The translations under genes were made by a program, and so were the position numbers. From a virus, in IMG/VR virus record IMGVR_UViG_3300021466_000176: a stretch of DNA of 64,000 nt. The stretch is one strand, 5' to 3'. The notes below the pieces were generated by a model, which ran no database searches, had not been told where the DNA came from, and saw only the letters and a program-made list of their open reading frames with translations. Shown in pieces: positions 31,900 through 32,606 of the stretch (the first letter of the stretch is position 1; every line of letters starts with the position of its first letter).

Positions 31900-32058
31900 C
31901 ATCAAATCGGTCCGAAAAGTCGAATAAAGAAACCTTTCCGTGATTCGGATTTCATCGACCCACTTAAACTGTCCGTACAGTGGGGGTCGATGATGTGATG
32001 CCCCACTCTCATTGGGTTAGATGTACTCGATAGGTCTCTAAGCAGTAGGTGACCACCT
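31900..32058 (+). promoter_or_regulatory. CRISPR leader
   Basis: Precedes the best-conserved repeat; IR CATCGACCC (31953-61) / GGGTCGATG (31984-92) resembles the GTCGACCC motif recalled from haloarchaeal leaders. Confidence 0.65.
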
Positions 32059-32606
32059 GTTGCAACCCAAGAAAACCCCGAGAGGGGATTGAAACGGGCG
32101 CAACTACAGATACAGCGGTATCTCGTTGAACGTTGCAACCCAAGAAAACCCCGAGAGGGGATTGAAACGTGTCACCCTCATAATTAGTAGCAGATTTTGA
32201 TAACTGTTGCAACCCAAGAAAACCCCGAGAGGGGATTGAAACTCTTAAGGCTTGAGGCCGTTGATCTGGTATGTCAGTTGGATCGGTTGCAACCCAAGAA
32301 AACCCCAAGAGGGGATTGAAACGATCGATCCAGGGGTAACGATATACCAATTCTCGTTGTAGCCCAAAAAACCCCGAGAGGGGATTGAAACACGTGCTCG
32401 ATGGGTACGGACCGCCGATCGAGGCAAGTTGTAACCCAAGAAAACCGGGAGGGGATTGAAACAGCCGAAGACCGACCATCCTACATTGGATATCCACGGC
32501 TGCAATCGAATAAACCCGAGAAGGGGGATTAAAATATGCGCCGATCGTAATATCATCAGACCACTCTTCCCCGTTGCAGTCGAAGAAACCGAGAGGGATT
32601 GGAAAC
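32059..32606 (+). CRISPR. CRISPR array, 8 repeats / 7 spacers, no cas1/2/3/6 in window
   Basis: 37-nt GTTGCAACCCAAGAAAACCCCGAGAGGGGATTGAAAC at 32059, 32132, 32206; progressively degenerate at 32286, 32356, 32428, 32498, 32573; spacers 33-43 nt. Confidence 0.97.

Follow-up and report, generated by a model that had tools for sequence, protein, structure and literature searches.

The window analysed here is a stretch of 64,000 nt from the virus record IMGVR_UViG_3300021466_000176, whose full length is 134,075 nt (CheckV completeness 91%). The record encodes a terminase, portal, tail sheath, baseplate, DNA polymerase and ribonucleotide reductase, and its DNA is present in halite metagenomes. The carrier is a tailed virus of salt-loving archaea, and its capsid has no close relatives in IMG/VR. 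Near the middle of the window, a structured RNA element, a leader and a CRISPR array follow one another on the plus strand, and a nuclease gene on the opposite strand lies 840 nt upstream of the array and points away from it (Table 1). The cassette is flanked by tRNA genes (at least 31 found by ARAGORN and four more by Rfam). Nine palindromic elements of 20-65 nt lie within this tRNA cluster, mostly directly after tRNA 3' ends, and a related copy was found on another contig of run X1. Directly upstream of the cluster are a Ro60/TROVE gene, a subtilase gene and an R2K-type ATP-grasp gene.

Table 1. Features of the virus cassette and its surroundings, and the related plasmid cassette (positions in the window unless stated otherwise)
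Feature	Position	Strand	Remarks
Ro60/TROVE, subtilase and R2K-type ATP-grasp genes	20879-25274		
tRNA genes	26422-37846	+	
Cas12f1-like (TnpB-family) effector, 414 aa	29974-31218	-	Pfam Cas12f1-like_TNB 4e-17; PADLOC Cas12u3 7e-40, Cas12f 5e-39
34-nt imperfect direct repeat	31216-31249 and 31380-31413		76%
45-aa ORF	31245-31382	-	between effector and tracrRNA-like element
tracrRNA-like structured RNA, ~500 nt	31438-31938	+	ends set by homology with relatives
[quoted passage not shown]
Second anti-repeat ATCCCC	31875-31880	+	after long-range helix; pairs with repeat positions -7 to -12
Type I-D-like leader	31939-32058	+	inverted repeat at -106 and -74, in phase with that of host I-D leaders
Leader inverted repeat, CATCGACCC / GGGTCGATG	31953-31961 / 31984-31992		9 nt
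CRISPR array	32059-32606	+	8 repeats (37 nt, ending GGGATTGAAAC), 7 spacers, degenerating towards the trailer
Repeats R1, R2, R3	32059-32095, 32132-32168, 32206-32242	+	identical 37-mers
Palindromic elements, ACTTTTAGGAAAAGT type	32941-36870		nine
H. marismortui pNG300 cassette (L308)	20071-24961 of L308		48-repeat array, tracrRNA-like element, RR_RS00480 (annotated TnpB)

The effector is an acidic protein (16% D+E), and its RuvC residues D233/E322/D401 and zinc-finger cysteines C370/C373/C390/C393 are invariant across 49 homologs. Among solved proteins AsCas12f1 gave the best score, and the structural model (pLDDT 90) had its best fold match in AsCas12f1 as well (TM 0.70-0.73), above ISDra2 TnpB (0.45-0.51) and LaTranC (0.48). 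The protein falls short of the curated cut-off for the named Cas12f models and clears that of the generic TnpB model. Its relatives from haloarchaea and hypersaline metagenomes share 37-47% identity with it and go by the name of TnpB or transposase in the databases; the effector of the window virus itself is on a long branch (0.98). With IS200/IS605 TnpB and TranC it shares the RuvC-zinc finger family and such names among its relatives, whereas the gene is present as a single copy and its fold is nearer to Cas12f1 (TM 0.73). We rejected a TnpB guided by an omegaRNA because the region 3' of the effector gene, where the omegaRNA would lie, has no conserved sequence in 20 loci, and because the virus record contains no Y1 transposase. 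A small ORF between the effector gene and the structured RNA has counterparts at the same place in five relatives (L006, L007, L017, L309 and L312), of which that of L007 gave no alignment in BLASTP. The 34-nt direct repeat, with a TTATT motif in each copy, lies at both divergent promoter regions and is a possible regulator site.

The structured RNA between the effector gene and the leader measures 370-400 nt in the relatives; the longer copy in the window has three insertions. An alignment of 15 loci supports at least nine helices with 58 pairs, 43 of them with compensatory changes, and 94.5% of the cells are paired compared with 37-44% when slid. The fold z is -2.98. The profile HMM of the element matches the window at 2e-56, and the virus genome holds a single copy. 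We also considered the repeat-like GGGGAATGAAAC at 31664-31675 as a separate guide and rejected it; it sits in a hairpin insertion of the element that is specific to the window.

Two short stretches of this RNA are complementary to the repeat end of the same locus. Across 14 loci, the short anti-repeat formed 79 of 84 possible pairs with its own repeat, compared with 65 after permuting the loci (0 of 20,000 permutations; kinship inflates the significance), and the second formed 73.5 of 84, compared with 68.2 (P 0.003, likewise inflated by kinship). Sliding either by 1-2 nt halved both pair counts or worse. The changes are reciprocal: A:T or G:C at position -6; T:A or C:G at -4, -2 and -8; and G:C or C:G at -1. 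Compensatory pair types occur at four positions of the short anti-repeat, and position -8, in the second one, is T:A in seven loci, C:G in seven and broken in none. The partners of loop and repeat end include GTTTCA/TGAAAC, CCTTCA/TGAAGG, GCTTCA/TGAAGC, CTTCG/CGAAG and CCTCCA/TGGAGG. Loci held out from the training mostly keep the complementarity (L175 and L092 are ambiguous), and in the window both anti-repeats are perfectly complementary to the repeat (12/12). By this covariation, the element is predicted to act as a tracrRNA. The second anti-repeat pairs with the 3' arm of a 4-bp hairpin within the repeat, and therefore a repeat should be bound by either the tracrRNA or Cas6, not by both.

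That hairpin is followed by an 8-nt 3' handle, and both are retained in R1-R5. The first-pass annotation of this stretch, made from its letters, described three identical leader-side repeats with decay towards the trailer, spacers of 33-43 nt and an inverted repeat in the leader, and this description holds: after the identical R1-R3, the repeats R4-R8 match R1 at 36/37, then 34, 33, 26 and 28 positions, and the spacers S1-S7 measure 36, 37, 43, 33, 36, 36 and 37 nt. The last 11 nt of the repeat are unchanged in R1-R6 compared with eight changes in the 5' part (weak, ~0.06 by chance). Seven 39-nt repeat copies at 69-80 nt spacing lie far above chance, and the repeat has no further copy anywhere in the 134-kb record. 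The annotation had noticed no self-match of the spacers, and indeed their best ungapped matches in the rest of the virus genome cover 20-26 of 33-43 nt, which is chance level. The 3' half of spacer 2 shows 85% complementarity over 20 nt with the palindromic-element copy at 32950-32969. A contig of run X2 (32056-32204; depth 3.5) joins the leader to spacer 3 without spacers 1-2, which may reflect an earlier state of the array or an artefact of assembly; it was left out of the analysis. A 14.5-kb contig of run X1 has a short match that stops at 32197.

The annotation had also recognised the repeat as of the haloarchaeal I-D kind and proposed that new spacers are acquired in trans, and both proposals agree with our results. 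The repeat is 28-29/37 identical to arrays of host genomes, all of which carry csc2 (5/5), although no exact match exists in the genome contigs searched and the best sampled host repeat reaches 29/37. The positions of the leader inverted repeat, a central TGTACAG and the junction motif are shared with about 20 host I-D leaders and with the I-D-type loci among the relatives. No cas1, cas2, cas4, cas6 or csc2 was found on the 134-kb record, neither inside the window nor just outside it, with the missing 9% of the record as a caveat. Because the virus is without these genes, the spacers must come from a host module.

The relatives form a clade of 31 loci on one branch (SH-aLRT 100, 31 rows, in a quick tree built without named Cas12f1 sequences and with neighbours unresolved). 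A profile search found the clade effector in 8 of 401 Halobacteria genomes, and the cassettes reside on plasmids, such as Haloarcula marismortui pNG300, and on viral records. Most arrays lie about 550-850 nt upstream of the effector gene on the opposite strand. The tracrRNA-like element was found in 29 of the 31 loci (15 that trained the profile and 14 held out), whereas the host type I loci searched with the same profile had no copy of it. Repeats follow the element and a leader in 24 of the 25 element-bearing loci with enough flank. In L092, L175, L177 and L178 the array lies downstream of the gene; the element has moved along and still precedes the leader. Several members deviate from this plan. 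In Halegenticoccus tardaugens (L018, 3733-6969), the effector is truncated at its N terminus and directly adjoins the trailer of an I-B array with 35 repeats near cas1, and the tracrRNA-like element is missing; a 2025 study mentioned this member only as a TnpB close to an I-B locus (PMC12596717). L309 has no array. In Halonotius pteroides, a single 15-kb contig holds two cassette copies that share their spacers (L011 and L012); they represent either a duplication or an assembly artefact.

The repeats of the clade are of two kinds: seven members have I-D-type repeats, and in most of the rest the repeats (30 nt) and leaders are of I-B type, the repeats being near-identical to host I-B repeats. 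On the tree, with the type of L008 and L018 assigned from the leader or adjacent array only, the distribution of the two types needs three changes, two of which are forced by well-supported branches. The repeat class has switched at least two to three times, and therefore a single inherited event does not explain the match between anti-repeats and repeat. Host class 1 adaptation modules probably write the arrays of the clade, judging from these leaders and repeats, and acquisition in the window virus would likewise be host-mediated.

The window spacers, which the annotation had proposed to compare with viruses and plasmids, led to no target. BLAST against phages and plasmids and a comparison with 401 Halobacteria genomes found no protospacer, and exact 17-18-mer scans of IMG/VR with S1, S2, S4 and S5 gave chance matches only, with 21-24 nt matched in low-GC phages. 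The arrays of L013, L091, L174, L015 and L312 had no phage target, and those of L009 and L174 none in genomes. In contrast to these arrays, six matches connect pNG300 spacers with Haloarcula tailed virus 3 (HATV-3), at 37/37, 34/35, 34/35, 34/36, 31/35 and 28/37. A 5' TTC flanks all six, and this flank reflects acquisition, not the nuclease. Together with the leader, it sets the orientation of the array, both giving the same reading direction. Three of the six matches stem from consecutive spacers, which would fit primed acquisition. TTC is one PAM of haloarchaeal I-B systems (PMC6546412), and many Cas12f have a T-rich PAM (PMC7229846). H. marismortui carries an I-B system, and the TTC at pNG300 fits the host I-B Cascade equally well. 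The haloarchaeal I-D PAM, for which the annotation expected GTN, was not derivable from 1080 host spacers; the one weak I-D spacer match (33/38) has the flank ACA and is too weak for a PAM reading.

Taken together, the array very probably serves as the guide store of a virus-borne, cas1-less system of type V-F1 likeness. In the mechanism that we propose, a host type I-D Cas1-Cas2-Cas4 complex would recognise the I-D-type leader and first repeat and insert spacers, as the identity of the leader and the lack of viral cas genes suggest. The array and the tracrRNA would be transcribed from the plus strand and the nuclease from the minus strand. The tracrRNA would then hold the last 11-12 nt of the repeat through a loop-loop pseudoknot and a helix of 5-6 bp, both of them short. 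This pairing is proposed because of the covariation and is analogous to that in AsCas12f1, which likewise has a short and a long repeat/anti-repeat duplex. As a side effect, the second helix would exclude the Cas6-type hairpin. Given its intact catalytic residues, the RuvC nuclease would cut dsDNA beside a 5' PAM, most likely in viruses or plasmids competing in the same cell, as the pNG300 spacers matching HATV-3 suggest.

For the clade as a whole, we tentatively propose a wider scheme, to which we give somewhat less than an even chance. A lineage without a CRISPR repeat of its own might repeatedly annex a host class 1 (I-B or I-D) repeat-plus-leader, retune two short anti-repeats in its tracrRNA of 400-500 nt, divert the pre-crRNA from Cas6 via the 3' arm of the hairpin and possibly read host arrays in trans.

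An addition to the guide-store explanation is that one pre-crRNA serves two effectors, the viral Cas12f by way of the tracrRNA and the host I-D Cascade by way of Cas6. The retained hairpin and handle would suit such use, since haloarchaeal type I crRNAs have an 8-nt 5' handle (PMC6546412), and so would the near-identity of the I-B-type repeats of the clade to those of hosts and a TTC that suits both effectors. However, a Cas6 product with the 8-nt handle would retain only the pseudoknot and two further pairs, so that the second duplex would be short of its three invariant C:G pairs, and the window repeat is at least eight positions off every sampled host repeat. We regard such dual use as rather unlikely.

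It is improbable that the cassette was formerly functional and is now decaying silently on the window virus. The long branch of the effector, the insertions in the RNA, the degenerate trailer repeats and broken relatives such as L018 and L309 could be read in this way, but the ORF is full-length and keeps every catalytic and zinc-binding residue, both anti-repeats match the repeat completely, the leader-side repeats are identical, and the conserved repeat end points, weakly, in the same direction.

The annotation had taken the array for an orphan mini-array that borrows the host type I-D machinery, so that host Cas6 would process its crRNAs and host I-D Cascade would use them; the neighbouring gene would then be an unrelated TnpB. 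The I-D-type repeat and leader, the retained hairpin with its handle and the documented virus mini-arrays that exploit host systems (PMC11656645) speak for it, but we consider it very improbable, as an effector gene and a tracrRNA-like element lie directly upstream, gene, RNA and array stay linked across the clade with anti-repeats covarying with the repeat, the closest sampled host repeat is so distant, and isolates carrying the cassette, some of them drafts, lack the host machinery: csc2 was found in none of five, I-B cas7 was not found in four of five, and cas1 is also often missing. In H. amylolytica, Natronococcus A-GB7 and G316 (some of these genomes being drafts), cassettes with 9-24 repeats accompany no detected cas1, I-B cas7 or csc2, so that interference would not require a host Cascade, although these cassettes may have been loaded in earlier hosts. 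The label mini-array does not fit either: the published definition has one or two spacers with host-identical repeats (PMC11656645), compared with seven spacers and an effector on the element here.

By analogy, the guide-store cassette of the window probably functions like the cas1-less systems of type V-F1 (formerly V-U3). Features of type V-F1 include an asymmetric homodimer on one guide, RNA-guided dsDNA cleavage and a 5' PAM rich in T or C. Like its Cas12f1 members, for example AsCas12f1 (PDB 8J12, 8DZJ, 7WJU) and SpCas12f1 (9I8Y) (PMC7229846), the cassette has a RuvC effector of about 420 aa with a zinc finger, no adaptation genes, a tracrRNA encoded in the interval from the gene to the array, and two repeat/anti-repeat duplexes. 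The flank is T-rich in pNG300, the sole clade member with targets. The guides of Cas12f1 also have two duplexes, one being a pseudoknot of 5-7 bp (PMC11246509). Unlike type V-F1, the clade is haloarchaeal and acidic, its effector reaches only 18-19% identity in structural alignment, and its repeats and leaders are of host class 1 type (I-B or I-D) and have been swapped within the clade. Compared with AsCas12f1, the second duplex is shorter (5-6 bp) and the RNA measures 370-500 nt. The clade arrays are mostly upstream and divergent, whereas arrays lie downstream in almost all conserved cas12 cases (PMC10691335).

With virus-borne mini-arrays (PMC6858448, PMC11656645) the window shares its location on a virus, the lack of cas1 and cas2, a host-type repeat and leader and probably rival elements as targets; it differs by its seven spacers, its own effector and tracrRNA and a repeat that exactly matches no sampled host repeat. 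With haloarchaeal I-D arrays it shares a 37-nt repeat with the same 3' end, spacers of 33-43 nt and the in-phase leader inverted repeat, whereas the virus record has no Cas10d, Csc1/2, Cas6 or Cas1, and host leaders are without an upstream structured RNA. Cas1-less Cas12f loci on mobile elements have already been described (PMC10691335, PMC9071438). The literature searched contains no description of a haloarchaeal Cas12f clade, which may figure among V-U6 to V-U45 of PMC10691335. What sets this clade apart is its host group, a tracrRNA of unusual length, duplexes of minimal size and the repeated switching between I-B and I-D modules.

The route by which cas1-less type V systems gain spacers is usually assumed. 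Here, the leader phase, the repeat type and the PAM point to named host modules for it. The clade also offers a testable system, as one cultured strain has the cassette together with an I-B module on a different plasmid and its target virus is in culture as well. A salt-adapted nuclease of 400 aa may become a tool in halophiles. The natural repeat swaps reveal which bases of the repeat a Cas12f guide needs. The haloarchaeal CRISPR literature searched covers type I, and on the present reading 'orphan' haloarchaeal arrays and 'TnpB' genes, such as RR_RS00480 of pNG300, would be reassigned to type V.
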